Of a stretch of DNA of 64,000 bases, positions 11,022 through 55,593 are shown in pieces. The position numbers and the translations under genes are program-made. Under the pieces are notes generated by a model. The model had not been told where the DNA came from. It worked only from the letters and a program-made list of their open reading frames with translations, and did not search any database. Position 1 is the first letter of the stretch; the number at the start of each line of letters is the position of its first letter. Origin of the DNA: Anaerosomatales bacterium (lineage in GTDB: Bacteria; Actinomycetota; Coriobacteriia; Anaerosomatales; SLCP01); the NCBI GenBank assembly GCA_029210645.1, contig JARGFT010000011.1, forward strand, positions 9,519 through 73,518, read 5' to 3'.

Positions 11022-11503
11022 CAGCGTTCGTCCTTCCCTCCGAGAAGTATGGTCCACCCACGCTTGACCTCGATGGGCACGGACGAGTAGGTCGCAAGCC
11101 ATACGAGATAGACAGCCACCGCGGCGAGCAGAAGTGCCGCAGTGGGCTGGTTGAGCCAGTGAGGACTGCCGGGCAGCCTGAAGACGTCCATGATAGCAAG
11201 CCCGGTGATCGACATCGTCACGAGCGAGACGTTGGCAGCGTTGTCGCGGCGCTCCAGGTAGCGGACGCTGCGAATCTTCTGGCTTTCGCGCATCCGTGCC
11301 GCGATGCCCCACACCGCCGGGCGCAGGCCGACCGCGAGCAGCGGCAGGAATGTGGCGAAGAGCGGCCAGGACCACCCTTCGGCCAGAAGACCGGCGAAAA
11401 TCGCCGCGAAGACCACGGGAACCGCGAGATGGGCGATGACGACCCCGCGGTCGGGGTCGTAGACATCGCGCCCCGCGTCCCCGGGCAGCACGACCCTACT
11501 CAC
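11021..11503 (-). CDS. Hypothetical membrane protein
   Basis: 160 aa with about 4 TM helices. Overlaps the thyX stop and the DUF1385 start, which suggests translational coupling. Confidence 0.55.
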   Translation of the reverse strand: MSRVVLPGDAGRDVYDPDRGVVIAHLAVPVVFAAIFAGLLAEGWSWPLFATFLPLLAVGLRPAVWGIAARMRESQKIRSVRYLERRDNAANVSLVTMSITGLAIMDVFRLPGSPHWLNQPTAALLLAAVAVYLVWLATYSSVPIEVKRGWTILLGGKDER

Positions 11504-12179
11504 GTCGGGGCGCCCGCTCGTACGGCTCGCCGCAGGTCATCTTTCCCTCGCGGCACGGCCCGCGCCTGCACGACGCGCCCGCGTCCATGAAGACGTAGGG
11601 CGCGGTGGGCTCGGCGAGTGCGAGCATGCGCAGCGCGAGGTCACGGATCTCCCACTGGGCCCGCTTGCAGCACCTCAGCTCGAAGAAGTGCAGCAACTCG
11701 CGCACGTTCATGGTGATGACGATCTTCGTCTCCATGGCGTTGGGCAGCAGATAGCGGGCATCCTCTGCGGGGATCCCGGAGTCGACGAGCTCGCGGTAGG
11801 CAGCGAACGCGGCGGAGGCCGCGGCATCGAAACGCTCGCGAATCCCCGGATCGTCCGTCACGCTCGGCGGGACGATGAAGGTGGGCTCCTCGTCGTAGGC
11901 GACGTAGCGCTGCGACTGCTGGTTGTACGAGGCGAGGCGGTGACGGACGAGCTGGTGGGTCATCGCCCGGGAGACCCCGTCGACCGCGAAGGTGTAGGAG
12001 ACGTGCTCGAGCGCGGAGAAGTGGCCCGAGTTCATGATGGTGCGCAGGACCTTGCGCACGCTCTCGGCGGTCATGTCCTCGAAGAGCGCCGCGGCGCCCA
12101 CCGGCGCGTAGCAGAGCCGGGCGGCCGCGGCGATCGCACGCTCGGGATCGGGTGTGTGATAGAGCAGGCGAACGTCCAC
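11496..12179 (-). CDS. thyX: FAD-dependent thymidylate synthase
   Basis: ThyX signature ...RHRLASYNQQSQRY... Start placed at the GTG (VDVRLLYHTPDPE). The ORF could extend to 12251. Confidence 0.88.
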   Translation of the reverse strand: MDVRLLYHTPDPERAIAAAARLCYAPVGAAALFEDMTAESVRKVLRTIMNSGHFSALEHVSYTFAVDGVSRAMTHQLVRHRLASYNQQSQRYVAYDEEPTFIVPPSVTDDPGIRERFDAAASAAFAAYRELVDSGIPAEDARYLLPNAMETKIVITMNVRELLHFFELRCCKRAQWEIRDLALRMLALAEPTAPYVFMDAGASCRRGPCREGKMTCGEPYERAPRRE

Positions 12180-12278
12180 GCGGTGCCTCTCGGAACGCGG
12201 GGCCGTCGGGCCCCGATACGGCAAGGGAGGCGAGTCGCCTCGCCTCCCCATTCTAGCAGTGCCGGTGCGGCAGAACGC

Positions 12279-12716
12279 CTACTCGGCGCTCTCCTCGGCG
12301 GGGGCCTCCTCGGCGACCGGTTCCTCGGCGGGAACCTCGTCGCCAACCGCATCAGCCACGCCCTGGGCCGCCGCAACCTTCGTCTCGTGCTTAGCTGCCT
12401 TGGCGGCCTTCTCGGCATCCTTCGCGGCGCGGGCCTCGCGGGCGGCAAGAGCAGCTTCCTCGTGCGCCTTCTGACGTGCGGCGCGCTCGGCGGCCTCCTT
12501 CTCGATGACGTTGGATGCCGAGGCACCGAATTTGTCGGCGAAACGCTGGACGCGACCGCCGGAGTCGACGAGCTTCTGGGTGCCGGTGTAGAACGGGTGG
12601 CACTTGGAGCAGAGCTCGACGTGGAGCTCTGCCTTGGTGGAGCGGGTCTTGAACGACTCGCCGCACGAACACGTCACCGTACTCTCGACGTAGTCCGGGT
12701 GGATACCCTCACGCAC
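12279..12716 (-). CDS. rpmE: Ribosomal protein L31 (zinc-ribbon type) with ~75-aa Ala/Glu/Lys-rich C-terminal extension
   Basis: N-terminal 70 aa reads REGIHPDY...CSCGES...[13 protein letters not shown] start lies 6 nt after a GGAGGTGA SD. The tail is low-complexity ([35 protein letters not shown]...). Confidence 0.92.
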
Positions 12717-12737
12717 GTGCAGTCACCTCCGATAAGC

Positions 12738-12760
12738 GGCCCTGGTTTCCGACCAGGGCC
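12738..12760 (-). terminator. Hairpin between rho and rpmE (rho terminator or rpmE leader stem)
   Basis: Minus strand reads GGCCCTGGT-CGGAA-ACCAGGGCC, a perfect 9-bp stem. It lies 7 nt upstream of the rpmE SD and has no U-tract. Confidence 0.35.
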
Positions 12761-12833
12761 TGAGCAAGCCGAGCAAGTGTAGCACGCGTCCTGCAGGTGG
12801 GCAACGAGATATTGCAGCGCTCTCCGGGGGTCC

Positions 12834-14183
12834 CTACAGATCGACCCCGTTGCTCTTCTCGGCAGCCTTCTTGGCCATCCGGTGCAGGAACTCCTGGTTC
12901 GTCGGCACCTGGCGCAATCCCTTGATGAGCATCTCGATGGCGCGCTCGGAGTTGTCCACCCCGTGCAGGATGCGCCGCACGCCCCACACGAACGGTGCCT
13001 CCATCGGATCGAGGAGCAGCTCCTCCTTGCGCGTGCCGCTGGTGACCACGTCGATGGCCGGGAAGATCCGGCGGTCGGCGAGGCGACGATCGAGGCGCAG
13101 CTCCATGTTACCCGTGCCCTTGAACTCCTCGAAGATCACCTCGTCCATCTTCGAGCCGGTCTCGACGAGCGCGGTTGCCATGATGGTGAGCGATCCGCCG
13201 TGCTCGATGTTGCGGGCCGCGCCGAAAAAGCGCTTGGGCGGGTAGAGAGCGGTCGAATCGACACCACCAGAGAGGATACGCCCGCTCGCCGGGGTGGCGA
13301 GGTTGTAGGCGCGCGCGAGGCGGGTGATCGAGTCGAGCAGGATGACAACGTCGTACCCGCTTTCGACGAGGCGCTTCGCGCGCTCCATCAGGAGTTCGGC
13401 CACGGCGATGTGGTTGTCGGCCGGCATATCGAAGGTCGAGGAGACGACCTCGCCCTTGATCGAACGCTCCATGTCGGTGACTTCCTCGGGCCGCTCGTCA
13501 ACCAGCAGGCACATGAGGTGGACGTCCGGGTCGTTAGCCGAGATCGACGCGGCGATCTCCTTGAGGATGGTGGTCTTGCCGGCCTTGGGCGGCGAGACGA
13601 TGAGCCCGCGCTGCCCCTTGCCGATGGGCGCCACCAGATCGATGATGCGGGCGGTGAGCTCGTCCTTGCCCGTCTCCAGCCGGAAGCGCTCGTCGGGGTA
13701 GACCGGCGTCAGGTCGCGGAAGTGCTTGCGCCCGCGCGCCTGCTCCGGGCTCAGCCCGTTGACCGTGTCGATGCGCTGGAGGGCCGCGTACTTCTCGTTG
13801 TCCTTCGGTGGCCGCACCTGTCCGCGGATCAGGTCGCCGCGGCGCAGCTCGCCCCGGCGGATCTGCGACATCGAGCAGTAGACATCCGAATCACCCGGGA
13901 GGTAGCCAGCCGTGCGGATGAAACCGTAGCCCTCGGGAAGAACGTCGAGGATGCCGCCGATCTCGACGAATCCCTCGGCCTTGACCTTGGCCTCGAGGAC
14001 GACATCGATGAGTTCGTCCTTCTTCTTGAGCGCCTTGACGTCGAGGCCCAGTTCGGCCGCCATCTCTCTGAGCTCGACGACCTTCTTCGGCTCGAGGTCG
14101 GCGCGGGTTATCGAGGGCTGGGGCGGCTGCTGGGCAGGACCACCTCCGCCGCGGCGGCCGCGCTTACGGGGTCGTGCGCTCAT
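12834..14183 (-). CDS. rho: Transcription termination factor Rho
   Basis: Rho N-domain, Walker A ...PPKAGKTT... and a conserved C-terminus. Start trimmed to MSARPRKRGRRGGGG..., whose ATG forms an ATGA overlap with the fsa stop. Confidence 0.95.
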   Translation of the reverse strand: MSARPRKRGRRGGGGPAQQPPQPSITRADLEPKKVVELREMAAELGLDVKALKKKDELIDVVLEAKVKAEGFVEIGGILDVLPEGYGFIRTAGYLPGDSDVYCSMSQIRRGELRRGDLIRGQVRPPKDNEKYAALQRIDTVNGLSPEQARGRKHFRDLTPVYPDERFRLETGKDELTARIIDLVAPIGKGQRGLIVSPPKAGKTTILKEIAASISANDPDVHLMCLLVDERPEEVTDMERSIKGEVVSSTFDMPADNHIAVAELLMERAKRLVESGYDVVILLDSITRLARAYNLATPASGRILSGGVDSTALYPPKRFFGAARNIEHGGSLTIMATALVETGSKMDEVIFEEFKGTGNMELRLDRRLADRRIFPAIDVVTSGTRKEELLLDPMEAPFVWGVRRILHGVDNSERAIEMLIKGLRQVPTNQEFLHRMAKKAAEKSNGVDL

Positions 14184-15793: not shown

Positions 15794-17137
15794 CTAAGCT
15801 CCCCTCTCTGCGCCGCGCTCGAGCGCGAGGCGCGACGCTTCCAGCAGCACTCCGTCAAGATCGCCCCCGTCCACCGGGACGGGCACGTTGTCACAGAGCA
15901 CGGTCGGCACCCCTGCCTCCTCGCCCGCGGTGGCCACCACATCGATCGCCGCAGCCTTGAGCTCGGTCAGGAGCAGGTCGTACTCCCCGGCGCATCGCTG
16001 CATGTCCCGTCTGAGCAGCGAGCGGTTCGACAGGTGGGAACTCGCGCCCACCACGGTGCAGCCGTACTCCTCCTCGAGATGGGCTGAGAGCTTGTCGAGC
16101 ACGGCCTCTGGTGCGGTGGTCGCGAAGAACACGCGGGCGCCGTCGACCGGCTCGATCGGCGCGGGCCGGAAGGTGGTCGTGGCAACCGGGAGTCCGGGGC
16201 GGGCCTCCTCTACGGCCTGCCGGACCGTCTCGATCTCCGCTGCCGACGCGTTGGGCTCCTCGGCCGTTGCGAGCACCACCGCATCAGCCTTGCCGAGCCG
16301 AAACGGCCCAAAGTAGTCGCGCACGTAGGTCAGACCGCGCCCGGCTCCCACTACGAGGATCGACGCATCCGCGTGGACCGGCGGGATCGCCGCGCCGGAA
16401 CCCTCGAGTACGAGCAGCTCCTTGCCGAGCGAGTCGGCAAGCCGCGCCCCCTCCACTACGTTGCTGAAGTAGGTCTCCCCTGCCATCCCGCCTCCGCAGC
16501 GGCGGCAACCAACCGTCGTGACCCGGCTCATGACGGCGTCCTCGTAGTTGTCCGAGGAGGCATGCTTGCCCTGCTTGGCGAGCTCGAGCAGTTCGGGCGT
16601 GGTCAGTGCGACCTCGTCGCCCCGGATGAGCTCGGGCTCGGCCGGACCGCCCCGGCCCATCGCGAGCACCACGATGTCGTGGCCCCGGGCTTTCAGCAGG
16701 CGCGCGACGTACGCCGAGATCGCCGTCTTGCCGACCCGCTTGCCGGTGCCGATGAGCCCCAGCGTGGGCGTCACGGTGTGCAGCGCGGCGGTGGGCGGCG
16801 AGAAGTGGAAGTCCGCGCCCCGGTACTCCACGCCGTGTGCGAGCGCGATGCCCGCGAGGCGGAAGCGGTCCGCGGAAGTCACGACCGGCTCGTCGGACAG
16901 GTCGACGACCAGGTCCGGGCTGTATCGCTCGACCGCCTCGGTCACGGCCCCCTCGGCGTCCGGAGCCGAGACGAGCGGCACGCCGTAGGTCTCGTGCCCG
17001 CCGTCGAGGTCGACCTTCTCGGTCCCACCGAGGAAGGCAGCTGCGACGACCTCATGCTCGGCAGCCAACTCCTCGAGCGCGAAGCGAACGACCGGCGGGT
17101 AGTGCTCGCCATCGATGAGCGCGACGACACGGCTCAC
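15794..17137 (-). CDS. Cyclic 2,3-diphosphoglycerate synthetase-like protein
   Basis: About 447 aa. N-terminus ...VVALIDGEHYPPVV... and P-loop-like ...GTGKRVGKT... fit my memory of methanogen cDPGS (~460 aa). GTG start forms a GTGA overlap with the upstream stop. Confidence 0.72.
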   Translation of the reverse strand: MSRVVALIDGEHYPPVVRFALEELAAEHEVVAAAFLGGTEKVDLDGGHETYGVPLVSAPDAEGAVTEAVERYSPDLVVDLSDEPVVTSADRFRLAGIALAHGVEYRGADFHFSPPTAALHTVTPTLGLIGTGKRVGKTAISAYVARLLKARGHDIVVLAMGRGGPAEPELIRGDEVALTTPELLELAKQGKHASSDNYEDAVMSRVTTVGCRRCGGGMAGETYFSNVVEGARLADSLGKELLVLEGSGAAIPPVHADASILVVGAGRGLTYVRDYFGPFRLGKADAVVLATAEEPNASAAEIETVRQAVEEARPGLPVATTTFRPAPIEPVDGARVFFATTAPEAVLDKLSAHLEEEYGCTVVGASSHLSNRSLLRRDMQRCAGEYDLLLTELKAAAIDVVATAGEEAGVPTVLCDNVPVPVDGGDLDGVLLEASRLALERGAERGA

Positions 17138-17931
17138 ACCGTCACCTCCCCGGCATCCGGGCGCCACCGGCAGTAGGTGCGGTGGACGTCATGGAAGTCC
17201 GCGACGCACTCGGCACCCGCGAAGGGCTCCTTGAGCAGCACGCGAACGCGCTCTCGGTGGTGGATCTCGACGATGTTGTAGCAGGGGCGCACCCGGCCGC
17301 GCAGGCGATGCGAACACGCCGTCCCCGCGTTGACGATGAGCATGTCCTCGAGCCGCCAGACGTTGGGCACGTGCTTGTGGCCGCAGAGCACCAGATCGGT
17401 GCCGCAGTTCGAGAGCACCCTGAGCATGTCTCCGGCGTCGTAGACGATGTTGCGTTCGCGTCCGGTGCCCGGCACCGGCACGAGATGGTGATGCAAGCAG
17501 ACGACCTTGAACTCGTCGGGCTCGCTGAAGCGCTCCTCGATCCAGCGGTACCGCTCGCGACCCACGCGACCGCTGTCGAGATCGGGCTCGGAGGAGTCCA
17601 GGCCGAGGAGGCGGATGCCCCCTGCCAGCAGCTCGCGACTGCGCGCACCGAAGAGCTCCGTGAAGTGCTCGTCGCCGACGTTTCGCGAGTCATGGTTGCC
17701 CATCAGCACGAGGCGGTTCGGGCACTCGATCCGGTCGAGCAGCCGCTGCGCCTGCGCGAACTCCTGACGAAACCCCATATCGGTGAGGTCGCCTGTCACG
17801 ACCACCACATCGGGCTCGAGCTCGTTGAGCTCGTCGATCACCCGGGTGGCCAGGCTCGGGATGTGGTAACGCGACCCGCAGTGCAGGTCGGAGATGTGGG
17901 CGATGACGAAAGGTGCGTTCTCGCTCACCAT
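17134..17931 (-). CDS. Calcineurin-like metallophosphoesterase
   Basis: Motifs ISDLHCG, VTGDLTD, GNHD, LHHH and GHKH are all present. Confidence 0.85.
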   Translation of the reverse strand: MVSENAPFVIAHISDLHCGSRYHIPSLATRVIDELNELEPDVVVVTGDLTDMGFRQEFAQAQRLLDRIECPNRLVLMGNHDSRNVGDEHFTELFGARSRELLAGGIRLLGLDSSEPDLDSGRVGRERYRWIEERFSEPDEFKVVCLHHHLVPVPGTGRERNIVYDAGDMLRVLSNCGTDLVLCGHKHVPNVWRLEDMLIVNAGTACSHRLRGRVRPCYNIVEIHHRERVRVLLKEPFAGAECVADFHDVHRTYCRWRPDAGEVTV

Positions 17932-17943
17932 CGACTCCCCCTC

Positions 17944-18936
17944 CTAGTGCGGAAGCGTGCGGCGGACAGCGTCGGCATCGGGCGCGAAGATGCCGAGGCG
18001 CTCGAGACGACTGCCGAATCCGATGAGGCTTCGCAGCAACCCGCTGTAGTCGTCGGCAATGTAGGTGACGACGTTCGGCTCGCCCTCGATACCACCCAGC
18101 TCGGCGGCACGGTCGAGCGCATCGTTGAAGGTGCCGAGGGAATCGACCAGCCCCATCTCGCGGGCGACCATGCCCGGCCACATCCAACCGGTCGCCATCT
18201 CCTCGACCTCATCGGCGGGAAGCGAACGACCTTCCGCAACGATGTCGATGAACTCGCGGTAGGCGACGTCGATGTACTCCTCGAAGAGCGCGGTCTCCGT
18301 TGCAGTCATGCTCCGGTACGCGCTCCCCGCATCCTTGTACTCGCCTGCGGTGAGCACGGTGAACTCGATGCCGAGCGTGTCCAGCAGGCCCTCGACGTTG
18401 GGTATCTGGGCGATCACGCCGATGCTGCCCACCGAGGAGGTGGGGGTGGCGACGATCTCGTCGCACTGCGAGGACACCATGTAGGCGCCCGAAGCGCAGA
18501 TGTCGCCGACGCTGACCACTATGGGCTTCTCGATGCGGGCGATCTCCATCGCGATCTCTTGCGACGCGGCCACCGTGCCTCCGGGAGAGTCGACCCGGAT
18601 AAGGATCGCCCTGACGGAGGGATCCTCATCGGCCTGCTGGAGCTGGTCGACGAAGTACTCGGGTGTGATGATTCCGCTGTAGACGTTTCCCGTCCCCGCG
18701 ATCACGCCGTCGAGATAGAGAAGCGCCACCGAGCCACCGGAGGTCCGGACCGTCGGGCCGCTATCGTATGCCCAGAATGCGACGAACGAGCACGCAAAGG
18801 CGGCGAGCAGCAGCACGACCACTGCGCCGATGAACCAGCGCCACCCCGTGCTCGATCGCTCCGGAGCAGGAGGAGCGGCAGGCGCGACGGGCTGCTCGGG
18901 GAGGTGTAGTGCGGAAGTGGTGCCCTGGTGTTCCAT
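17944..18936 (-). CDS. sppA: Signal peptide peptidase SppA (36K type)
   Basis: N-terminal TM helix followed by a ClpP/crotonase-like fold, with ...DICASGAYM... (catalytic Ser context). Confidence 0.85.
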   Translation of the reverse strand: MEHQGTTSALHLPEQPVAPAAPPAPERSSTGWRWFIGAVVVLLLAAFACSFVAFWAYDSGPTVRTSGGSVALLYLDGVIAGTGNVYSGIITPEYFVDQLQQADEDPSVRAILIRVDSPGGTVAASQEIAMEIARIEKPIVVSVGDICASGAYMVSSQCDEIVATPTSSVGSIGVIAQIPNVEGLLDTLGIEFTVLTAGEYKDAGSAYRSMTATETALFEEYIDVAYREFIDIVAEGRSLPADEVEEMATGWMWPGMVAREMGLVDSLGTFNDALDRAAELGGIEGEPNVVTYIADDYSGLLRSLIGFGSRLERLGIFAPDADAVRRTLPH

Positions 18937-19040
18937 GGATTCCTCCGCGCGAGGTGTGGATGTCGCGGCTGCGACAGCGGATGGCGGTGCTCTCTATATT
19001 CCCTGACCGTGGATTGTCCGGTCAACAACCGCAGCACACT

Positions 19041-19967
19041 TCAGGCCAGGGTGGCGCCCGAGCGCGATATCCCGACGGCGAGCGGCTCGCACCTTCCCTC
19101 GAGCCGCTCGATCGCGGGACGCGCCCGAGCGGCGATCTCCACCGCATGCGCGAGCGCGCTTGCATCATCGGCTTCGGCGACGAGCCCGATCACCGTCGGA
19201 CCGGCACCCGAGAGCGCGGCGCCGGTGGCCCCCGCGGCGAGCAAGGCGGAGCGCACCGCCTCCAGATCGCCCACCGCGGCAGCACGGTACGGCTCGTGGA
19301 TCCGGTCGGCCAGACCGGCGGCGAGTGCGCCTGCGTCGCCGAGCGCGATCCCCGCGACGAGCAGGCCGGCGCGACCGGCGCTGAACGCTGCGTCGGCGTG
19401 GGGCACTGTTGCGGGGAGCAGCTCTCGCGCGTCGGGCGTAGCGAGCTGAGCGTGCGCGCTCACGACAACGGCCGCAAGACCCCGGGCCGGCTCGAGTCGC
19501 ATACATCGTGGCGTCCCGTCACTCAGTGCCCAGCTCACGGTGAACCCGCCATAGAGTGCAGCCGCAACGTTATCGGGATGGCCTTCGATCTCGGTCGCGA
19601 GCGCCAGCAGGGTCTCGCGGTCCAGATCGCTCCCGCACAGCGCGTCTCCCAGGATGAGCCCGCCGACGATCGCCGCCGCCGACGAACCGAGCCCGGCACC
19701 CGGGGGAATGTTGTTCTCGCACCGCAGCGATGCGGCGAGTCCGGGACGGCCCGCCTCGGCGAACACCCGCGCCACCGAGCGCGCCACGCGGTTGTCGGCT
19801 CCGCTGGAGAGCAGCCCCTCACCCTCGCCGGCGACCTCGACGTGCCACTCCTCGGCGAGCTCGGCGCTGAACCGGTTGTGCAGCGCGAGCGCCAGGCCGA
19901 AGGAGTCGAATCCCGGACCGAGATTGGCGCTGGTCGCGGGTATCGTGACGGTGTGCACGCGTGGCAC
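19041..19967 (-). CDS. thrB: Homoserine kinase
   Basis: GHMP kinase motifs ...PATSANLGPGFD... and ...IPPGAGLGSSAA... Start at GTG 19967 or 19958, just after the hom stop. Confidence 0.92.
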   Translation of the reverse strand: MPRVHTVTIPATSANLGPGFDSFGLALALHNRFSAELAEEWHVEVAGEGEGLLSSGADNRVARSVARVFAEAGRPGLAASLRCENNIPPGAGLGSSAAAIVGGLILGDALCGSDLDRETLLALATEIEGHPDNVAAALYGGFTVSWALSDGTPRCMRLEPARGLAAVVVSAHAQLATPDARELLPATVPHADAAFSAGRAGLLVAGIALGDAGALAAGLADRIHEPYRAAAVGDLEAVRSALLAAGATGAALSGAGPTVIGLVAEADDASALAHAVEIAARARPAIERLEGRCEPLAVGISRSGATLA

Positions 19968-19974
19968 CGGGTTC

Positions 19975-21261
19975 CTAGAGGTCCTCGACGCGGAGGACCG
20001 AGTCGACCGACTCGACGATGTCGAGCTGCTCGATCTCGGCAAGCGCCGCCCGTACGGCCCGCTCGGTCGCACGATGCGTCACGTAGACGATCTCGGCTGT
20101 CGGTTCGTCGGCGCCCTTCTGGATGACGCTCGCGAGCGACACGCCGTGATCTCCGAAGGACGTGGCCACCCGGCCGAACACACCCGGCTGGTCGACGACG
20201 CGCAGCCGCAGGTAGTAGGAGGTCTCGAGGTCTCCCATGTCACGCACGGGCAGCTCCTCGTTGCAGGTGCAGCCGACCAGGCCGAGGCAGCCGCGGGAGA
20301 TGTGACGGGCCACCTCGATCACGTCGCCGACCACCGCGCTCGCCGCCGGCAGCGACCCGGCGCCCTCGCCGAAGAACATCGTCTCGCCGACCGAATCCCC
20401 GACGACATAGATCGCGTTGTAGACACCGTTGACGCCCGACATCGGGTGCGACATGCGAATCATCGTCGGGTGGACCCTGATGTCGATGCCGGCCTCTGTG
20501 CGCCGCGCGATCGCCAGCAGCTTGATCGCGTAGCCCATCTCCGCGGCGTAGGCGACGTCGGCCGCCGAGATCGAGCGGATACCCTCGGCCGGCACCTGGT
20601 CCATCACGACGCGGCTGTTGAACGCGATCGAAGCGAGGATGGCAATCTTGGCTGCAGCGTCGAGCCCGTCGACGTCAGCGGTCGGGTCCGCCTCGGCAAA
20701 CCCTTTATCCTGGGCCTCGGCAAGCGCGGAGTCGTAGTCGAGCCCGTCCTCGGCCATCCGTGTGAGCATGTAGTTCGTGGTGCCGTTGACGATGCCCATG
20801 ATGCTGGTGATCTCGTTGGACACGAGGCAGTGCTTGAGCGGACTTATGATCGGGATACCGCCGCCCACACTCGCCTCGAACGCGATGTCCACGCCGTGCT
20901 CCGCGGCAGTGTCCATGACCTCCTGGCCGTGGCTTGCCATGAGCGCTTTGTTGGCGGTCACCACGCTCTTGCCCGATGTGAGAGCCGTGAGTACCACGTC
21001 CCGCGCCACTCCGGTGCCACCGATGAGCTCGATCACGATGTCGAGTTCGGGGTCGGAGATGAGTTCGAACGCGTCCGTGGTGAACGTCTTCTCAGGCAGG
21101 CCGAGGGCCTCCGCGCGGCCGGCATCGCGATCCGCGAACCGCGTGAGACGGATGTCGACGCCGGCCCGCCTCCGGAAGTCCCCGGCATGCCGACCGAAGA
21201 TCTCCACGACTCCGGAGCCGACGGTTCCAAGGCCGATCAGGCCGACGTTGACGGTGCGCAT
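19975..21261 (-). CDS. hom: Homoserine dehydrogenase (with C-terminal ACT domain)
   Basis: 428 aa with Rossmann motif ...VGLIGLGTVGSG... and a conserved catalytic core. Confidence 0.95.
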   Translation of the reverse strand: MRTVNVGLIGLGTVGSGVVEIFGRHAGDFRRRAGVDIRLTRFADRDAGRAEALGLPEKTFTTDAFELISDPELDIVIELIGGTGVARDVVLTALTSGKSVVTANKALMASHGQEVMDTAAEHGVDIAFEASVGGGIPIISPLKHCLVSNEITSIMGIVNGTTNYMLTRMAEDGLDYDSALAEAQDKGFAEADPTADVDGLDAAAKIAILASIAFNSRVVMDQVPAEGIRSISAADVAYAAEMGYAIKLLAIARRTEAGIDIRVHPTMIRMSHPMSGVNGVYNAIYVVGDSVGETMFFGEGAGSLPAASAVVGDVIEVARHISRGCLGLVGCTCNEELPVRDMGDLETSYYLRLRVVDQPGVFGRVATSFGDHGVSLASVIQKGADEPTAEIVYVTHRATERAVRAALAEIEQLDIVESVDSVLRVEDL

Positions 21262-21436
21262 GACTTCCTCCGGTGCAGACTGCGGGACGGACCGGCGGTT
21301 GCCCGGTCAGAGCGTATTGTACCCGAGTCCCGGGCCGGGCCGGGTCGCGCCGCAGTGGTCAGACAACGGTCAGATGTGGTTGGCACCCATGTGGATACTC
21401 GGCATCGAACATACGTTTGACCGAGGGAGGCGGCCG

Positions 21437-22081
21437 ATGAAACGGAGACATGCAACCACAAGAGCGGTCACGGCACTGCTGATCGTGCTCGGCGTCCTCG
21501 TGCCCGCATACGCGTTCGCGGCGTACAGGATGGTGCCGACGACGTGCACGAGCAGGTGTGCCAAGCAGCAGACGACCTACTGGTGCGGCCCCGCGAGCAC
21601 ACATTTCGTACTGCACTCGCAGGGACGCAACCTCGCGCAGTCGACCCTCGCTCGAGAGCTGAAAGGGTACCGCGGGGCGACCGCGATCGAGAACATCCCC
21701 GCCGTGCTCAACAGGTACAAGAGGGTCTCCATCAAGTACGTGCACGTGCCCCGCCGCTACATCACGAGCACCTCGCTCGTGAGAAGCATCATCACCTACG
21801 CAGTCGATCGCAAGTCCAGCGCGATCCCCTGCGTCAACCCGTACCCATACACCAACACCGCAGGGTACTACTCACCGGGCCTCCCGACCTATAGCGGCAC
21901 GAAGGCCGGCGGACACTACGTGGTGATTCGCGGGTACAACATCTCCTCGACCAGCGACTACGTCTACTACTTCGATCCGCACTACAGCTCCACACATTAC
22001 GGGAAGAGGCGCGCGAGCGTGTGGGCGATGGCCCGATCGATCCGGGTGAAGAACTATGGCAGCCAGGGCATCGTCTACTAG
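21437..22081 (+). CDS. Secreted papain-fold cysteine peptidase, C39-like
   Basis: 214 aa. Sec signal MKRRHATTRAVTALLIVLGVLVPAYA/FA, Cys motif QQTTYWCGPAS, His motif GGHYVVIRGY, then YYFDPH. Start chosen at ATG 21437. The long ORF from 20777 is antisense to hom. Confidence 0.7.
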   Translation: MKRRHATTRAVTALLIVLGVLVPAYAFAAYRMVPTTCTSRCAKQQTTYWCGPASTHFVLHSQGRNLAQSTLARELKGYRGATAIENIPAVLNRYKRVSIKYVHVPRRYITSTSLVRSIITYAVDRKSSAIPCVNPYPYTNTAGYYSPGLPTYSGTKAGGHYVVIRGYNISSTSDYVYYFDPHYSSTHYGKRRASVWAMARSIRVKNYGSQGIVY

Positions 22082-22976
22082 CGCCGCCGCGGAGCGGCCG
22101 AGCGGCAGCGCACGTACCGCCGGGCGCGGGAGGAGAGCTGCCATCGGCATCGCCTGGGGGCAGGCATGCCTCTTCGCGGCGAGCACTCTGGTGCCGGCCC
22201 AGGGCATACGGGCTGGAGCGGAGCTCGGCTCACCGGCGCTGCGCGTTCTCGAGTGGACGCTGTTGCTTCCGCTGAGCCTGAGCGTTGCCGCGGTGTACCG
22301 GACTGCGAACACGACAGAAGCGCTCGCCGCCCACGGCCTGCCGCAGACGGCGCTCCCGCTGCCCGCGCTCGCCGGCTGGACGCTCGTGGCGTTTTTCGCC
22401 GCGCTTCTTGCCTCCCGTGGGCAGATGGTGGCCCGCGCGGCGCTCGCGATCGCCGTGGTTGCCGGGTGCGTGGCGGCCGGGGTGCACGTTCCTGCGACCG
22501 CCGAGGCGCGCGATGCCGAGCAGATCTTCCTGCGCATGGTCAAGACCGATCTCGACCCTTGGGACGACCCGGTCTCGCGCTCCGCGGCCAGGGCACTGGC
22601 GACTCGCTATCCCGATTCGCGCTGGGCGTCCGAGGCCTGGAGGGTCATTGCCATCGACGCGGAACGGCGTGACAGCGTGTCGGAGGCACTCGCCGCCTGG
22701 CAGTCCTTCGGAGAGTGCTTCGACAACACATCGGCACCGGGGCGGTCGCTGGCCGCGCTCAACTCCGCCCGCCTGTTGGAGCGGTCGGCCCCTGCGGACG
22801 TCGCCGCGGCCCACTACGCACGAGCGCTCCGCTCGATCGGAACGGGCGAGGACGCCGTACAGGCATGGATCGCCCCAGAAGCTGCGGGCAGCCTCGCGCG
22901 GCTCTCGCAGCGCAGCGGACTCTATGCGACCGCGGCGTACTGGCAGCGCAGAACGCAGCCAGACCCTGGAAAATGA
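22056..22976 (+). CDS. Hypothetical membrane protein with TPR/YbgF-BamD-like C-terminal half
   Basis: 306 aa with high GC3 in this frame. About 3-4 hydrophobic segments are followed by ...ATRYPDSRWASEAW... helical repeats. Start uncertain; ATG 22056 overlaps the peptidase gene by 26 nt. Confidence 0.55.
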   Translation: MAARASSTSAAAERPSGSARTAGRGRRAAIGIAWGQACLFAASTLVPAQGIRAGAELGSPALRVLEWTLLLPLSLSVAAVYRTANTTEALAAHGLPQTALPLPALAGWTLVAFFAALLASRGQMVARAALAIAVVAGCVAAGVHVPATAEARDAEQIFLRMVKTDLDPWDDPVSRSAARALATRYPDSRWASEAWRVIAIDAERRDSVSEALAAWQSFGECFDNTSAPGRSLAALNSARLLERSAPADVAAAHYARALRSIGTGEDAVQAWIAPEAAGSLARLSQRSGLYATAAYWQRRTQPDPGK

Positions 22977-23001
22977 CCCATTCGAAACAAGGAGGTCTGA
23001 G

Positions 23002-24111
23002 ATGAGTACGTCTCGCAACATGCCCCGGATCGTCGGGGCGACGGTACTGGCAGCACTCATGATCGCCGTCGTCGTCGCCACGGCGTCCGCCGGCCGAGCG
23101 CGCGTGGCAAGCGCGTTTGCCGACGACGTAAAGGCGGAGATGGCACGAACCTATCGCGATGCATCGACGTGGCGCGCGCACATCGAGGAGCGGGAACTCG
23201 TCGCTGACGGCGCCTACCGCACCACCAGACACCGCGTGGCGGTAGGCGGCCCGAACCGGTACCGCATCGAGACGATCGAGCAGGACGCGAGTGGCAGGGA
23301 GGTCACCTCGGTCACCCTGAGAAACGGCAACACCGTCTACGCGGCCATGCCGACGGAGGACGGAGGCGTACACGTCCTCGAGCTGCGCAACGCACCGCCG
23401 AGCCTCGGCGCGCTGGCCGACAACATGCTCGGCCAACGAGTGCGCGACCTCGCGCGTGCGGGTGAGATGCGCTATGCCGGTCGCGACCGAATCCGTGGGA
23501 ACGCGGCACTCAAGCTCGTGGTCGAGCCCGACCACCTCGCCTGGGTCGATGCGACCACCAACATACCGCTGCGCGAGCAGTTCCTCGCGGACGGTGCGCC
23601 CGTCCACGAGATCGAGTTCCTGTCGTTCGAGACGAACCGCCGGATCGAGGAGGCCGAGTTCGACCCCTCATCGCTGGGGGCGGTACCGTCGGCGACCGAG
23701 GACCTCGGGTTCCGCAGCGCCGACCTGCGCTCCGCACCCACACTACTCGGGTTCACGCCGCGGGAGTTCTCGGCCCCCGACGAGTGGCGGCTTCTCGAGT
23801 CCGGCTATGTCGAGCCGACCGCGGCGTTCGACGAAGTCCCGGGCACGCACACGTGGATCTCTCACTACAGCACACCCGTCGGACCCGTGATCATCACCCA
23901 GTCCGCGGTGGACGAGGAGTTCGTGCTCTCGCCCGAGGCCGGAGATGGGACAGAGGGGCCGCTGCTCACCGAGGTCGGCGGTCATCGTGTCGCCTACTAC
24001 ACCGATCCGTGGCGGACCCACGCGACGATGCACGTGGGCGATACGATCGTTTCGGTCGAGGGGGTACTGCCGTTCGAGACGGTGCTCGATGCACTGGCAC
24101 GGGTACGATGA
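23002..24111 (+). CDS. Membrane-anchored LolA/RseB-like lipoprotein-sorting fold + DUF4367-like C-terminal domain
   Basis: ATG lies 6 nt after AAGGAGG. N-terminal anchor ...IVGATVLAALMIAVVVATASA. The middle region resembles LolA/MucB-RseB-type proteins and the C-terminal ~100 aa resembles DUF4367. Confidence 0.65.
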   Translation: MSTSRNMPRIVGATVLAALMIAVVVATASAGRARVASAFADDVKAEMARTYRDASTWRAHIEERELVADGAYRTTRHRVAVGGPNRYRIETIEQDASGREVTSVTLRNGNTVYAAMPTEDGGVHVLELRNAPPSLGALADNMLGQRVRDLARAGEMRYAGRDRIRGNAALKLVVEPDHLAWVDATTNIPLREQFLADGAPVHEIEFLSFETNRRIEEAEFDPSSLGAVPSATEDLGFRSADLRSAPTLLGFTPREFSAPDEWRLLESGYVEPTAAFDEVPGTHTWISHYSTPVGPVIITQSAVDEEFVLSPEAGDGTEGPLLTEVGGHRVAYYTDPWRTHATMHVGDTIVSVEGVLPFETVLDALARVR

Positions 24112-25064
24112 GGAGGGCGGGGGTGGTGCGCATGCCGGAGACCACAGGGGCGAGACGCTTCGCGATCATCATCGGGACCCTTCTGCTCGCGTTCGCCCTC
24201 GGCGCGTCCGCAGGTTGCTCTCAAGCGGGGGGCGAATCCGGCGACGCGCCGGGAAGCGGATCAGCGGGACCCGTGGCGGTCGACACCAACGGCGAGCCAT
24301 ATCCCCAGCTGGAGGGGCTCGTGTTCGTCAGACAGGGGTCGATCTGGGCAGTCGAGGACGGTATCGCCCGTCAGGTTATCGATATCGCGTCGCCATGGTC
24401 TCTCCGTGACGCGCGGAGCGGAGACGCCATCACCTACGCTTCGCTCGAGGGCACGAACGCCCACGTCTACACGGCTGCACGAGGCGACTGGCGGCCCGAG
24501 TCGATGTGGGAGACGGAGATGGGCTCGCTGCTCGTCGAGAGCTCACACGACGATATCGCCGATGCGCTCTGGTTCTCGGTGAGCGGCGAACAGACTGCCA
24601 CTATCGGGGTGCGCGACGGGACGGGCACTGCGGGCACGCTGGAGATGGCGGTGGAAGCCTCCCCGTACTTCGCGGTCCGCTACGAGGATGGGACTATCTT
24701 CGTAGTGGGGGCTTCGCAGGAACCGGCACGGCTCTACGAAGTAGGAGTGGAGACACGAGAGCTGCTCGTTGCGGGCACACTCTTCTCTCCACGCCTGTCC
24801 CCGGACGGGACCCGGGTGCTGCTGACCGGATCGGATCAGGGCACCGGCACGTTCCACCTCTGGGTCGTCGACACCTCGTCCGGATCGCTCGCCGATATCG
24901 GAGTCGGTGCGGGTGTGCCCACCGATCCGGTCTGGTCTCGCGACGGCACGCGCATCGCGTTTCGGGACACGCACACCGGCACGGTGTGGATCGTGCCCGC
25001 CACCGAAGGTGGTGCTGCTCACGACACCGGTCTACTCGCAGATGAGGGAGGGCTCGCCTGGTAG
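24108..25064 (+). CDS. Lipoprotein with TolB-like (PD40/WD40-like) beta-propeller repeats
   Basis: Lipobox ...LAFALGASAGC. Repeated ...SPDGTRVLL.../...SRDGTRIAF... motifs are typical of PD40 repeats. ATGA overlap with the upstream stop. Alternative ATG at 24132. Confidence 0.65.
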   Translation: MRRAGVVRMPETTGARRFAIIIGTLLLAFALGASAGCSQAGGESGDAPGSGSAGPVAVDTNGEPYPQLEGLVFVRQGSIWAVEDGIARQVIDIASPWSLRDARSGDAITYASLEGTNAHVYTAARGDWRPESMWETEMGSLLVESSHDDIADALWFSVSGEQTATIGVRDGTGTAGTLEMAVEASPYFAVRYEDGTIFVVGASQEPARLYEVGVETRELLVAGTLFSPRLSPDGTRVLLTGSDQGTGTFHLWVVDTSSGSLADIGVGAGVPTDPVWSRDGTRIAFRDTHTGTVWIVPATEGGAAHDTGLLADEGGLAW

Positions 25065-25138
25065 ACCGGCACGTGCGCTGCGAGCAGCGTGATGTGGTGG
25101 CGTGCGCCGGGTACCAACCCCGGAGGAGGTGCCCCAGG

Positions 25139-25804
25139 GTGGAAACCGCAACAGCTCTTGCGCCGTTCGTCGTCGCCGGATCGATACTGCCGACATGGAC
25201 GATCGTCGTCATCGCCCTGCTCGGCACCGCTCGGCCGGTCGCGAACAGCACCGCGTTCGTTCTCGGGAATGCTGCGTTTCGCGCGTTGCTCGGGATCGCC
25301 GTGCTGTTCGTGATCCCGCTCCCCGACAGCGAGAGTTTCCGGCTCGACTCCGGCGCCTGGGACGCGCGCGCGGTGATCGTGTTCGGCGTGGGGCTTCTCG
25401 CACTCGCGGCGTGGCTCTGGACGCGGCCCCCGGCGCCGGAGGGCGACAGCTGGGTCGAGCGGGCGGAGCAGATCCGCCCGCGGACCGCATTCGTGGTCGG
25501 CGCTCTGATGACCGCCTCTCCGGGCGTGCAATACGCCTACCTGCTCGGCGGGTTGGCCGCTGTGCTCGAAACCACTGGCGGTCCTGTCGAGCGCGTCGTC
25601 GCCCTGGGGGTGTTCGTCCTTGCCCTGCAGTGGATGCTCGCAACGCCGATTGCGATCTACCTGCTCTTCCGCGAGGGCGCGAAGCGCATCCTGCAGCGGA
25701 TGAAGGCATGGCTGAGAGCCTACGGCCAACGGCTGATAGCGGGTGTGCTCGGGGTCGCGGGCGCCTACGTGACGGTCATAGGCGTCCAGCAGCTGCTGGC
25801 CTGA
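25139..25804 (+). CDS. Polytopic membrane protein (GAP/Sap-like family, tentative)
   Basis: About 6 TM helices. GTG start lies 9 nt after GGAGGAGG. Family assignment is from memory and is weak. Confidence 0.5.
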   Translation: METATALAPFVVAGSILPTWTIVVIALLGTARPVANSTAFVLGNAAFRALLGIAVLFVIPLPDSESFRLDSGAWDARAVIVFGVGLLALAAWLWTRPPAPEGDSWVERAEQIRPRTAFVVGALMTASPGVQYAYLLGGLAAVLETTGGPVERVVALGVFVLALQWMLATPIAIYLLFREGAKRILQRMKAWLRAYGQRLIAGVLGVAGAYVTVIGVQQLLA

Positions 25805-25815
25805 GTCGCGCGCTC

Positions 25816-26307
25816 CTAGAACGTGTCACCGAGCCCGGCGCCGAGCCCTACGGTCCCTGAGACCGAGGAGGCGTCCTCACCGAGTTCGCGCACGGTGATG
25901 ATCGATTGGGCGCCGGCACCCTTGAAGAGATAGAGCACCACGCCCTGGGAGTCTGCGCCGGAGAGCCTCTCTTCCCGGTCGAGCACCCAGTTCGCCCCCG
26001 CATAGGCAAGGCGGTACCATTCGCTCACGAGATCAACCGGCTCGGCTGCCTCGAGATCGTAGCCCCAGACCGAGCCCGGGGTCACGACCTGCGTGCCGGT
26101 CACGATGGCATCGAACACCGGCACCTGGAACGGGAACCCCTCGGCGAGTTCGGTCGACTTGCGCTCCATGGACATCGCGTGGGCGGGAACGTCGACCGCC
26201 GGACGCTCCACGGCAGCGGTGTCGACCGGCGGATTCGCAGTGCAGCCGAGGAGCAGTACGATCATCGACACGACCAGGGCAGCGGCTGAGGTCGTGCGTC
26301 GGAACAT
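25816..26307 (-). CDS. Small lipoprotein, function unknown
   Basis: Start trimmed to MFRRTTSAAALVVSMIVLLLGC (lipobox LLGC). About 163 aa, directly downstream of lysA. Confidence 0.6.
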   Translation of the reverse strand: MFRRTTSAAALVVSMIVLLLGCTANPPVDTAAVERPAVDVPAHAMSMERKSTELAEGFPFQVPVFDAIVTGTQVVTPGSVWGYDLEAAEPVDLVSEWYRLAYAGANWVLDREERLSGADSQGVVLYLFKGAGAQSIITVRELGEDASSVSGTVGLGAGLGDTF

Positions 26308-26312
26308 CCGCC

Positions 26313-27683
26313 TCACCCCCCGAGCACGTCGTTGCGCATGAGGTCGTCGTAGGTCTCGCGCTTGATGACCCAGCGCCACTGCCCGTCGCGCACGAACACC
26401 ACGCCGGGACGCACCTGCTTGTTGTAGTTGCTCGCCATCGACTGGCAGTATGCGCCGGTCGCGCAGACGCACAGCACGTCACCGGGCTCCGGGCACTGCA
26501 GCGAGGCATCGTTGACCACGATGTCCCCGCTCTCGCAGTGCTTGCCGGCCACGGTCGCGACCATCTCGCGCGGCTGGTCGGCCTTGTTGGCGAGCAGCGC
26601 CTCGTAGTGTGCGTCGTAAAGCGAGGTTCGGATGTTGTCGGACATGCCCCCGTCCACCGCCACGTACGTGCGGATGTCCGGGATCTCCTTGATTGAGCCG
26701 ACGGTGTAGAGCGTCACGCCGGCGTTCGCCACGATGGAGCGCCCCGGCTCGACGGCCATGCGCGGCACCGCCAGTCCGTGTTTCTCGCACTCCTCCTTGA
26801 TGCCGTCGACCACCACCTTGCCGAAGTCCTTGACGGTCGAGGGTTCGTCCGGCGCACCGTACGCGACGCCGAGCCCGCCCCCGACGTCGAGCATGCGTAC
26901 CGGTTGGCCCGTCCCGCTCTCGATCTCGCGCATGAACGCGACGATGACCTCGATGGCGCGGGCGAAACTGTGGAGCGCGAAGATCTGCGAACCGATGTGC
27001 ATGTGCAGGCCCTCGAAGTCGATGCCGGGCAGGCCGATGGCACGCTTGACCGCCTCCATCGCGAGTCCCTGGTTCAACCCGAATCCGAACTTGGAGTCCT
27101 CGGCACCGGTCATGATGAAGTCGTGGGTGTCCGCCTCGACACCCGGCGTGACGCGGATGAGCACCTTCTGCGACGCGCCGCGCGCTGACGCGAGTGCGGA
27201 GAGCCGTTCCATCTCCTCGAAGTTGTCCACGACGATGCGCCCAACTCCGGCATCGAGACATTCGGCGAGCTCGGCAGGGGTCTTGTTGTTGCCGTGCACC
27301 TGCACGCGCTCGGCCGGGAAGCCGGCGCGGATCGCGTACGCGAGCTCTCCTCCGGACGCACACAGCAGGCAGCAGTCCTCCTCGGCGACGATCCTGATCA
27401 TCGCGAGCGAGAGGAACGCCTTGCCCGCGTACACGACGTCCACGTCGGGCCAGTGGAAGCGCGTCCAGCGCACGTACTCCGCGAGCTGGTGGCGGATCGT
27501 CGCCTCGTCCATGACGTAGAGTGCGGTGCCCGCCTCGCGGGCCAGGTCGACCATGTCGACGCCGCCGATCCACAGGTGTCCGTCGCGCACCTCGGCCGTC
27601 ATCGGCAGCACCGGAGCGAGGTCGGCCGCGGTCTTCAGGTCGGGAACCGCCCGCGGGCGGGGCGTGCTCGGCTTGGCGGCCAT
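26313..27683 (-). CDS. lysA: Diaminopimelate decarboxylase
   Basis: 456 aa, fold-III PLP decarboxylase with ...YAGKAF... (PLP Lys) and ...CESGD... motifs. Confidence 0.95.
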   Translation of the reverse strand: MAAKPSTPRPRAVPDLKTAADLAPVLPMTAEVRDGHLWIGGVDMVDLAREAGTALYVMDEATIRHQLAEYVRWTRFHWPDVDVVYAGKAFLSLAMIRIVAEEDCCLLCASGGELAYAIRAGFPAERVQVHGNNKTPAELAECLDAGVGRIVVDNFEEMERLSALASARGASQKVLIRVTPGVEADTHDFIMTGAEDSKFGFGLNQGLAMEAVKRAIGLPGIDFEGLHMHIGSQIFALHSFARAIEVIVAFMREIESGTGQPVRMLDVGGGLGVAYGAPDEPSTVKDFGKVVVDGIKEECEKHGLAVPRMAVEPGRSIVANAGVTLYTVGSIKEIPDIRTYVAVDGGMSDNIRTSLYDAHYEALLANKADQPREMVATVAGKHCESGDIVVNDASLQCPEPGDVLCVCATGAYCQSMASNYNKQVRPGVVFVRDGQWRWVIKRETYDDLMRNDVLGG

Positions 27684-29499: not shown

Positions 29500-29751
29500 T
29501 CAGCGAATGGCCCTGCCGATGGCGAGCAGGATGATCGCTCCGATGGTCGCCACGATGATCGACCACAGGTCCACCCCGCCAACGCCGCTGAACCCGAACA
29601 GTCCCATCACGAACCCGCCTACGAGCGCCCCGATGATACCGAGGATGACAGTGACGATGCACCCTTTGCGCTCTCCCCCGCCCATGATCACCTGGGCGAG
29701 TAGTCCCGCAACCAGACCCACCGCCACCCAGCTCAGCAGACCCATCGTCAT
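29500..29751 (-). CDS. GlsB/YeaQ/YmgE family transglycosylase-associated membrane protein
   Basis: 83 aa, Gly-rich with 3 TM helices: MTMGLLSWVAVGLVAGLLAQ...GIIGALVGGF... Confidence 0.75.
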   Translation of the reverse strand: MTMGLLSWVAVGLVAGLLAQVIMGGGERKGCIVTVILGIIGALVGGFVMGLFGFSGVGGVDLWSIIVATIGAIILLAIGRAIR

Positions 29752-29820
29752 CTCCCTTCGCTCGCGTACGGGCATGCCAGGAAGATACCCGTTCGGGAGC
29801 GAACGACCGACACCACGCGT

Positions 29821-55242: not shown

Positions 55243-55593
55243 ATGTCGCTCACGATAGACCTCACACAGGAGCCCACCTACTGGCTCCTGAAACTCGCGG
55301 GGGATCTGGACTACGGTGAGTGCGCTGCGTTCCGGGTCAACATCGACCGGATCCTGAAGAACTCGCCACCTGCGGCGATCGTCGATCTATCGAACCTCGA
55401 GTATCTGGACAGCTCCGGTCTCGGGCTGCTCTTGAGCCTGTCCAAGGAGTTCGGCGCCCAGGGAGGCCGTCTCGTGCTGGTCACCAACGAAACGGTCGAC
55501 AACATCCTGTCGCTGACCCGGCTGAACGGTATCTTCTCCACCGCATCGTCGATGGAGGATGCGCTGGCAACCGTCTCGGAGCAGCCGCTTTAG
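55243..55593 (+). CDS. STAS-domain anti-sigma-factor antagonist (SpoIIAA/RsbV-like)
   Basis: 116 aa with ...YLDSSGLGLLLS... Divergent from the other STAS gene. Confidence 0.85.
   Translation: MSLTIDLTQEPTYWLLKLAGDLDYGECAAFRVNIDRILKNSPPAAIVDLSNLEYLDSSGLGLLLSLSKEFGAQGGRLVLVTNETVDNILSLTRLNGIFSTASSMEDALATVSEQPL

Follow-up and report, generated by a model that had tools for sequence, protein, structure and literature searches.

What is a compact set of envelope-protein genes doing on the opposite strand from nearly everything around it, between the genes for homoserine dehydrogenase (hom) and diaminopimelate decarboxylase (lysA) of an Anaerosomatales bacterium? The locus lies in a stretch of 64,000 nucleotides (the window) comprising positions 9,519 to 73,518 of contig JARGFT010000011.1 in assembly GCA_029210645.1, a member of the Coriobacteriia. 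A first-pass annotation of the window had described five co-directional plus-strand genes at 21437-25804, here called G1 to G5, together with a minus-strand lipoprotein gene, G6, as an inserted island of diderm envelope maintenance functions. Here we report that the conserved unit comprises G1-G4, which encode a secreted cysteine peptidase, a membrane protein with a TPR domain, an anchored RseB/LolA-like protein and a propeller lipoprotein, and that it brings together, in a way not previously described, folds that are familiar and have established uses in monoderms; the literature that we searched holds no description of the gene combination, in keeping with the first annotator's failure to map it to a described system. 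The reading that we favour, with less than even confidence, is that G1-G4 constitute a tethered module for autolysin control at the outer face of the membrane of monoderm Coriobacteriia.

The five plus-strand genes are all real and coding, as seen from the phase of GC content at third codon positions (GC3), conserved orthologues and the ratios of nonsynonymous to synonymous substitution rates (dN/dS). On a codon-position GC plot the change in GC3 phase coincides with the gene borders given at first pass, and the start-codon contexts bear out the junctions as they had been described: G1 and G2 overlap by 26 nt, G3 and G4 are joined by an ATGA overlap at 24108, and the ATG of G3 is preceded by AAGGAGG at a spacing of 7 nt, while GGAGGAGG is the Shine-Dalgarno sequence 5' of the GTG start of G5. 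That the first two genes do overlap is clear, because the ATG at 22056 is the sole possible G2 start 5' of the conserved first transmembrane (TM) helix with its GIAWGH motif. Doubts had been raised over the coding status of G2 and G5; G2 has 11 full-length homologues and G5 matches PF11139 at 3e-26, and in comparison with the close relative L005 both have a dN/dS of 0.31. The corresponding values for G1 (0.10), G3 (0.34) and G4 (0.22) complete the picture of five genes all under purifying selection. G1-G4, often with G5, form one translationally coupled operon. Its promoter can only be presumed to lie in the divergent region between hom and G1, since a sigma-70 consensus scan of positions 21000-26600 gave no match, promoter and terminator scans being uninformative in 68% GC DNA such as this (window GC ~68%). 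The GC3-based gene call places ~55 consecutive minus-strand genes across window positions 1-62618, and the only plus-strand genes in the window are G1-G5 and one 116-aa open reading frame (ORF) at 55243-55593.

The four genes travel as a unit. In clade 1 the arrangement hom-[G1-G4]-lysA recurs in loci from metagenomes or metagenome-assembled genomes (MAGs), namely L001-L009, L016 and L099, with G3 orthologues at 46-83% identity; L010 is a 1.5-kb fragment in which only G3-G4 are visible, and in L096 hom-[G1-G6] is followed by a GGDEF gene and hisIE in place of lysA. Clade 2 (L011-L015, L097, L098, L100), reached through a second tier of G1 homologues at 47-51% identity, has these four genes too, in unchanged order, but at an unrelated site flanked by MarR/ABC or Ni_hydr_CYTB genes on one side and Aminotran_5/ADI/BipA on the other. 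The remaining clade-2 proteins are ~32-35% (G2), 31-33% (G3) and 26-33% (G4) identical to those of the window, and one clade-2 member is annotated as a Coriobacteriia MAG. The recurrence of the same four homologous genes, in the same order, at some ten hom/lysA loci and in a second genomic context indicates that G1-G4 are co-inherited as a unit. To judge from these searches, the cassette is known only from a few uncultured lineages of Coriobacteriia. The window's own proteins have identical database entries that derive from a MAG of the Anaerosomatales (OPB41, class Coriobacteriia). A pattern-based genome scan with G3 found it in 6 GTDB species, a count that is a lower bound because the G3 pattern would miss the G3 proteins of clade 2.

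G1, the sole enzyme of the four, is a protein of 214 residues with a Sec signal peptide ending in AYAFA. PF13529 (Peptidase_C39_2) matches it at 42.6 bits (cut-off 24, E 1.2e-10), and the match spans profile positions 7-143 of 143. Among 20 homologues from both lineages Q44, C50 and H160 are invariant, as are Cys37, Cys41 and Cys132, and D180 is present in at least 90%; by motif position, Cys50, His160 and Asp180 are the proposed catalytic residues. G1 is thus predicted to be a cysteine peptidase of the Peptidase_C39_2 type that has a papain fold and is exported by Sec. In PHROG it matches three families only, all of them endolysins: phrog_6007, phrog_1519 and phrog_16428 (5e-10 to 2e-7, residues 42-188). 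A published catalogue gives Peptidase_C39_2 as a catalytic domain found in endolysins exclusively from phages that infect Gram-positive hosts (PMC8223927). We infer from these matches that G1 is a candidate wall hydrolase. It is a single-domain protein with neither a wall-binding nor an anchoring domain, and it is the best-conserved gene product of the unit (67-85% identity in clade 1, ~50% to clade 2). A role in bacteriocin processing was considered and rejected: the bacteriocin-type PF03412 stays below cut-off (13.9 bits vs 22), and we found no ABC exporter, small precursor ORF or double-glycine precursor conserved beside the cassette in either genomic context.

In contrast to G1, the other three core proteins are non-enzymatic and membrane-tethered. 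G2 (306 aa) consists of three to four hydrophobic helices and a C-terminal TPR-like domain of ~150 aa and seven helices. Its AlphaFold2 model has a predicted local distance difference test score (pLDDT) of 77, rising to ~90 in the C-terminal domain, and Foldseek matches it to generic TPR proteins only (designed CTPR, KLC, MamA and YfgM). No Pfam or NCBIfam family covers G2, and only 12 homologues were found in a database of 5.8 billion clusters. The BamD/YfiO model TIGR03302 fails (12.9 vs 81.4 bits) and PF13525 appears, at E 0.067, in one of the 11 full-length homologues. In homologues in which both helices are called, the loop between TM3 and TM4 holds three to five K/R and no D/E. This charge pattern, read by the positive-inside rule, and the lone N-in TM helix that precedes the TPR domain in the homologue from L096 make it most likely that the TPR domain is extracytoplasmic.

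G3 (369 aa) has an N-terminal TM anchor and an extracytoplasmic part predicted to adopt a two-domain MucB/RseB-like (LolA-type) fold. Structure prediction was needed here, sequence-profile searches of the PDB being uninformative for G1 (no match at E up to 10) and G2 (one match only, E 0.31) and weak for G3 (RseB, E 0.056). The AlphaFold2 model of G3 (pLDDT 82, predicted template modelling score 0.74) retrieves RseB or MucB from the PDB at each of Foldseek ranks 1-15, over ~340 columns at 13-16% identity (E 1e-16 to 8e-11), with LolA, LolA-superfamily and ependymin-related proteins following at E 1e-7 and weaker; TM scores reach only 0.33-0.47 because of domain orientation. Sequence models fall just short, with PF03888 at 20.3 bits against a cut-off of 22.3 (E 4.5e-4) and a weak match of the second domain to DUF4245 (5e-4, below cut-off). 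A profile search of 1.84 billion representatives returned 19 matches, 11 of them below 1e-30. Of the 19, the distant relatives P0085, P0090 and P0091 match at E 7e-14 to 4e-4; they contain DUF4367, and their LolA_like matches are sub-threshold. G3 itself matches neither LolA_like nor DUF4367.

G4 is a lipoprotein of 318 aa whose lipobox ends in SAGC (LAGC or LGGC in orthologues), with the Cys invariant in the alignment. It passes PF07676 (PD40) with 22.0 bits against a cut-off of 20.9, and its profile finds the TolB propellers in the PDB (4e-10 over ~75 residues). It fails the TolB equivalog TIGR02800 (37.7 bits vs 343.15), the match covering ~70 residues or two PD40 blades, and it is a propeller only, of ~270 aa, in which the N-terminal domain of TolB is absent.

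G5, a polytopic membrane protein of 221 aa, is a confident member of PF11139 (SfLAP, Sap/Gap), scoring 92.5 bits against 35 (3.4e-26, positions 11-212 of 213). It follows G4 in L001, L005-L008, L016, L096 and L099 and is missing from L003, L004, L009 and every clade-2 locus, which makes it a frequent but dispensable accessory rather than part of the core. The fold guesses made at first pass therefore stand for a C39-like G1, a TPR domain in G2, an RseB/LolA fold in G3, PD40/TolB-type repeats in G4 and a polytopic G5, but not for a YbgF/BamD-like G2 or a TolB in the strict sense; the DUF4367 domain attributed to G3 occurs only in its most distant relatives.

Two ways of reading these folds take them at face value as parts of Gram-negative systems. 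The best structural match of G3 is the proteobacterial lipopolysaccharide (LPS) sensor RseB/MucB, TolB propellers are the best PDB sequence matches of G4, and in Firmicutes SsdC has been interpreted as left over from a diderm ancestry (PMC7769602). On this view the cassette might be diderm-type envelope machinery of the Tol, Lol or Bam kind, or its remnant, and the lineage would have an outer membrane or would have been diderm until recently. We consider this very improbable. The two cultured members of the Anaerosomatales, both thin rods, show a wall of the Gram-positive type when thin-sectioned (PMC9686372); the specific models for TolB, BamD/YfiO and PF03888 are not satisfied by G4, G2 and G3; no tolQRA/pal, lolCDE, bam/BamA or Lpt genes were found among the window genes scanned (1-47 kb), and the families have very few members and are confined to particular lineages instead of being ancestral. 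The diderm interpretation of the first-pass annotation is therefore not retained: these folds have monoderm roles. Alternatively, an RseB/MucB fold with protease and membrane-protein genes alongside could denote stress signalling like that of sigma-E, with G3 guarding a membrane anti-sigma factor, G2, from site-1 cleavage by G1. This we find hardly credible. A sensor domain with its sigma factor nearby had been named at the outset as a competing possibility, and no sigma or anti-sigma family occurs in the window at 1-47 kb or in the flanks of L001, L011, L013, L097, L098 and L100. The cytoplasmic N-terminus of G2, with ~20-27 non-conserved residues (19 in L096), is too short for an anti-sigma domain, and no match to zf-HC2 or RskA was obtained. 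The anti-sigma reading of G2 is accordingly rejected.

All four core proteins are, by their export signals and predicted topology, either exported or built with the globular part outside the membrane. An unanchored secreted enzyme with three tethered, non-enzymatic partners has the anatomy of a hydrolase held and controlled at the membrane surface. Monoderm precedents exist for such a use of the RseB/LolA fold: in C. difficile the LolA-like lipoprotein GerS allosterically activates the amidase CwlD, and Bacillus SsdC is a GerS orthologue with an extra DUF4367 domain (bioRxiv 10.1101/2025.01.13.632879), while in B. subtilis SsdC (YdcC), a TM-anchored MucB/RseB-like protein, is needed for a normal spore cortex (PMC7769602). 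Together with the endolysin affinity of G1, these precedents make a module for autolysin control the best supported reading. Under this reading the TPR scaffold of G2, with G3 and G4, would capture secreted G1 at the interface between membrane and wall, and the tethered partners would gate its activity. Cleavage of stem peptides or cross-links would thereby be confined, in place and time, to the opening of the wall during growth, division or turnover, and by analogy with GerS and SsdC the RseB/LolA-like G3 may serve as an activator or a sensor. That the proteins bind one another, that the substrate is peptidoglycan and that regulation runs in this direction are what we infer rather than observe.

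Several points weigh against autolysin control. None of G1-G4 contains a LysM, SH3, SPOR or PASTA peptidoglycan-binding domain, the literature searched yields no biochemically characterised C39_2 wall hydrolase, and the 'endolysin' label of the PHROG and Pfam matches is itself bioinformatic. The likeness of G3 to GerS and SsdC is at fold level only, and those systems are specific to sporulation and use an Amidase_3 enzyme. C39-fold enzymes are classically proteases that act on protein or peptide substrates. This last point, with the lack of a peptidoglycan-binding domain, would suit an extracytoplasmic protease complex for protein processing or quality control. The targets of G1 would then be secreted proteins, lipoproteins or surface proteins, and it might mature the precursors of pili or surface proteins or remove misfolded exported proteins. 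Here G2 and G4 would be substrate adaptors (cf. NlpI-Prc and the Tricorn/S9 propellers) and G3 would sense a substrate or lipid cue, as RseB does for RseA/DegS. PD40 propellers gate S9 peptidases and acyl-peptide hydrolases, both of which are among the profile matches of G4, and there are faint Tricorn_N matches; the cultured relatives also bear abundant pili-like appendages (PMC9686372). We nevertheless regard such a complex as somewhat unlikely, for no substrate gene, whether a small precursor, a double-glycine leader or an adhesin, is conserved beside the cassette in either context, G1 is below the bacteriocin-type C39 cut-off, and its functionally labelled matches are endolysins only. Taken together, G5 and the LolA-type fold are just as suggestive of lipid handling, LolA and RseB being lipid-binding half-barrels: G3 might carry an acylated molecule, be it lipid, lipoglycan or lipoprotein, freed from the membrane with the help of G5, and G1 might trim the cargo or a protein anchor. 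SfLAP-type G5 follows G4 both at hom/lysA loci and in the rearranged L096, and G4 bears a faint resemblance, well short of the cut-off, to the stabiliser propeller of MmpL3/TtfA (NF048007, E 0.015). This account is rather improbable in our view: G5 is not core, since L003, L004 and all cassettes of clade 2 lack it, the window at 1-47 kb was found to contain neither an MmpL/RND nor an ABC lipid exporter, and the superior conservation of the peptidase G1 would be left unexplained.

Comparison with L005, whose genome is otherwise about 95-98% identical, suggests a further dimension to the autolysin reading. When window positions 21437-24111 are set against L005 8437-11110, nucleotide identity is about 83% in G1, 67-70% in G2 and 73-93% in G3, compared with 94-98% in most of the flanks, G4 and most of G5; it is 45-56% in G6. 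The synonymous divergence (dS) of G1 (0.75), G2 (0.81) and G3 (0.37) exceeds that of hom, G4, G5, lysA and argS (0.08-0.26), and the contrast of G1 and G2 with the flanks indicates a divergent allele acquired by recombination rather than accelerated evolution in place. The pattern suggests that the G1-G2(-G3) segment is an exchanged divergent allele or, alternatively, a product of MAG chimerism. An extended version of autolysin control, which we judge unlikely, would make G1-G4 a new, self-contained class of control machinery in monoderm Actinomycetota, in which a lipid- or glycolipid-sensing, RseB-like G3, the TPR scaffold and the propeller lipoprotein gate G1, and whose G1-G2(-G3) alleles are exchanged between strains. 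If true, that exchange would suggest a surface-exposed part targeted by phage or antagonist pressure.

The position of the cassette also repays attention. A lysA-based metagenome scan returned 80 loci, and in most of those that reach hom the gap between lysA and hom is 18-600 nt, so that dozens of loci uphold the initial view that the cassette sits where these two genes are usually adjacent. A minority of gaps (L036, L050, L067, L020, L031, L062, L035, L038, L039 and others) hold 1-4 kb of unrelated cargo, and the lysA-hom junction is a recurrent, variable insertion point in Coriobacteriia relatives. By sequence or length, this cargo probably includes cytochrome bd subunits, an ABC transporter, MFS transporters, a membrane protein of 944 aa and small secreted proteins that bear a Cys motif. 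The island of the first-pass annotation can be kept in the sense of a variable slot, but not in that of a recent genomic island. Cassette composition resembles that of the flanks (GC 0.62-0.72 and GC3 0.78-0.86, against 0.67-0.69 and 0.88-0.92), and at the cassette there are no mobility genes, no flanking repeats above chance level and no adjacent tRNA, the single tRNA lying at 41.7 kb. The divergence of G3 to 46% identity within the same slot shows that the cassette has long been resident in the lineage.

G6 is not a member of the cassette, although it had been counted with it. This small lipoprotein of 163 aa (lipobox LLGC), without a Pfam or NCBIfam match, is encoded 5 nt downstream of lysA on the same strand and forms the tail of the argS-lysA unit. 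G6-like genes fill the slot where there is no cassette (L020 6007-6501, L031 12246-12806), the counterpart in L005 (12818-13264) is a lipoprotein only 30% identical, and L001 has no G6. It is the strand shared with lysA, the occupancy of slots that lack the cassette and the replacement in L005 that exclude G6 from the unit. The lipoprotein gene that follows lysA thus varies independently of the cassette.

Two features of clade-2 loci deserve mention. A conserved 58-aa ORF lies ~200 nt 5' of most clade-2 cassettes (L011 9602-9778, L015 9554-9730, L012, L098 and L100) and reads MD.KQQV.DAMKAAGEPLNAGK.AEMTGL.RK.VDKAM.ELKK.G.IVSPKRCYW.P; it is not present in the window, L013 or L097. The product resembles small DNA-binding proteins of the winged-helix type and might act in local regulation. 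That it might be a precursor substrate of the C39 peptidase was rejected, as it is like a winged helix-turn-helix protein and is not universal upstream of clade-2 cassettes. In L015 (ENA contig_56184, 550 kb) apparent frameshifts break up the cassette at 10001-13307 and also the ADI and BipA genes next to it, which points to long-read assembly errors rather than pseudogenisation.

Apart from the cassette, positions 1-47 kb form a classical actinobacterial housekeeping block, all on the minus strand: atp genes, GT4 (WecA-like), upp, glyA, tsaC, prmC, prfA, thyX, rho, tal, thrB and hom before the cassette, and lysA, argS, rlmH, htrA and nuo genes after it. The coordinates of the locus are collected in the table below. 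At 17944-20072 (minus strand) thrB, encoding a GHMP kinase, directly follows hom with no thrC between, and an S49/NfeD-type peptidase gene is next; the longest ORF for thrB extends ~98 nt into the 3' end of hom (the L001 orthologue has 306 aa), so its true start is probably downstream. A 457-aa ORF on the minus strand at 15794-17167, between AAA-ATPase and metallophosphoesterase genes, has no Pfam match, and its L001 orthologue has a precomputed match to PF27272 (CpgS_N), the N-terminal domain of cyclic 2,3-diphosphoglycerate synthetase, an archaeal thermoprotectant enzyme. Between argS and rlmH, at 29500-29775 (minus strand), lies a gene for a small Transgly_assoc membrane protein of the GlsB/YeaQ/YmgE type (PF04226, 3.7e-13); L099 also has a Transgly_assoc gene, plus a YggT-family gene.

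Table. Features of the hom-lysA region, in window coordinates.
Feature	Position	Strand	Basis or remark
hom (homoserine dehydrogenase)	19975-21261	-	NF004976, 554 bits
Divergent hom/G1 intergenic region	21262-21436		175 nt; promoters of both units presumed here
G1	21437-22081	+	codon-position GC plot and start-codon contexts
G2	22056-22976	+	codon-position GC plot and start-codon contexts
G3	23002-24111	+	codon-position GC plot and start-codon contexts
G4	24108-25064	+	codon-position GC plot and start-codon contexts
G5	25139-25804	+	GTG start; codon-position GC plot and start-codon contexts
G6	25816-26307	-	codon-position GC plot and start-codon contexts
lysA (diaminopimelate decarboxylase)	26313-27683	-	TIGR01048, 447 bits; argS next

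Only a handful of systems that restrain secreted wall hydrolases in Gram-positive bacteria are known, FtsEX-CwlO/PcsB/RipC and GerS-CwlD among them, and almost all come from Firmicutes or mycobacteria. The locus described here is a compact four-gene candidate from a deep-subsurface order of Coriobacteriia that has only recently been cultured, and two of its four core families lack a database model, the families of G2 and G3 being tiny. G3 would extend the RseB/LolA fold to monoderm Actinomycetota. If its partners do gate a C39_2 peptidase, the cassette would represent a new logic of autolysin control and, if true, the first cellular role for a catalytic domain known mainly from endolysin catalogues. 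On a more general level, LolA-, TolB- and TPR-type folds in a monoderm genome should not be taken as evidence of outer-membrane biology.

Among known systems, several resemble parts of the cassette. Sap/Gap proteins assist MmpL glycolipid export, and with the mycobacterial Sap/Gap and LprG/LppX proteins, also actinobacterial, the locus shares PF11139 in G5 and a LolA-type lipid-carrier fold in G3; in contrast, there is no MmpL transporter nearby, G5 is dispensable and Coriobacteriia have no mycomembrane. The co-encoding of an envelope-facing PD40 propeller (G4) and TPR domain (G2) recalls TolB, CpoB (YbgF), BamB and BamD, whereas G4 is a propeller-only lipoprotein, the TPR domain of the integral membrane protein G2 matches none but generic TPR proteins, and neither TolQRA, Pal or Bam genes nor an outer membrane accompany them. 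Escherichia coli RseB and Pseudomonas aeruginosa MucB, of the sigma-E and AlgU pathways, match both domains of G3, the best structural match, and the G3 gene too stands near a protease and a membrane protein. The cassette, however, has no sigma factor, anti-sigma factor of the RseA/MucA type, DegS or RseP; G3 is TM-anchored rather than soluble and periplasmic and sub-threshold for PF03888, and the host is a monoderm without LPS. Phage endolysins of the C39_2 type (PHROG 6007, 1519 and 16428) are matched over the whole catalytic domain of G1 and belong to the same Pfam family, PF13529; unlike them, G1 is chromosomal, Sec-exported and single-domain, lacks a wall-binding module and is encoded in an operon with membrane partners. 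The SsdC and GerS systems of Firmicutes differ from the cassette in having no TPR or propeller partners and in serving spore formers, the cassette host being non-spore-forming, its enzyme a C39_2 cysteine peptidase rather than an Amidase_3, and the G3 family limited to a few Coriobacteriia lineages. They nevertheless share with it a monoderm setting and a membrane-tethered protein, by a TM helix in SsdC and a lipid in GerS, with an extracytoplasmic RseB/LolA-like domain. G3 has the same architecture as SsdC, an N-terminal TM helix followed by an RseB-like part, and its most distant sequence relatives, with DUF4367 and a sub-threshold LolA_like match, recall the LolA_like plus DUF4367 architecture reported for SsdC.

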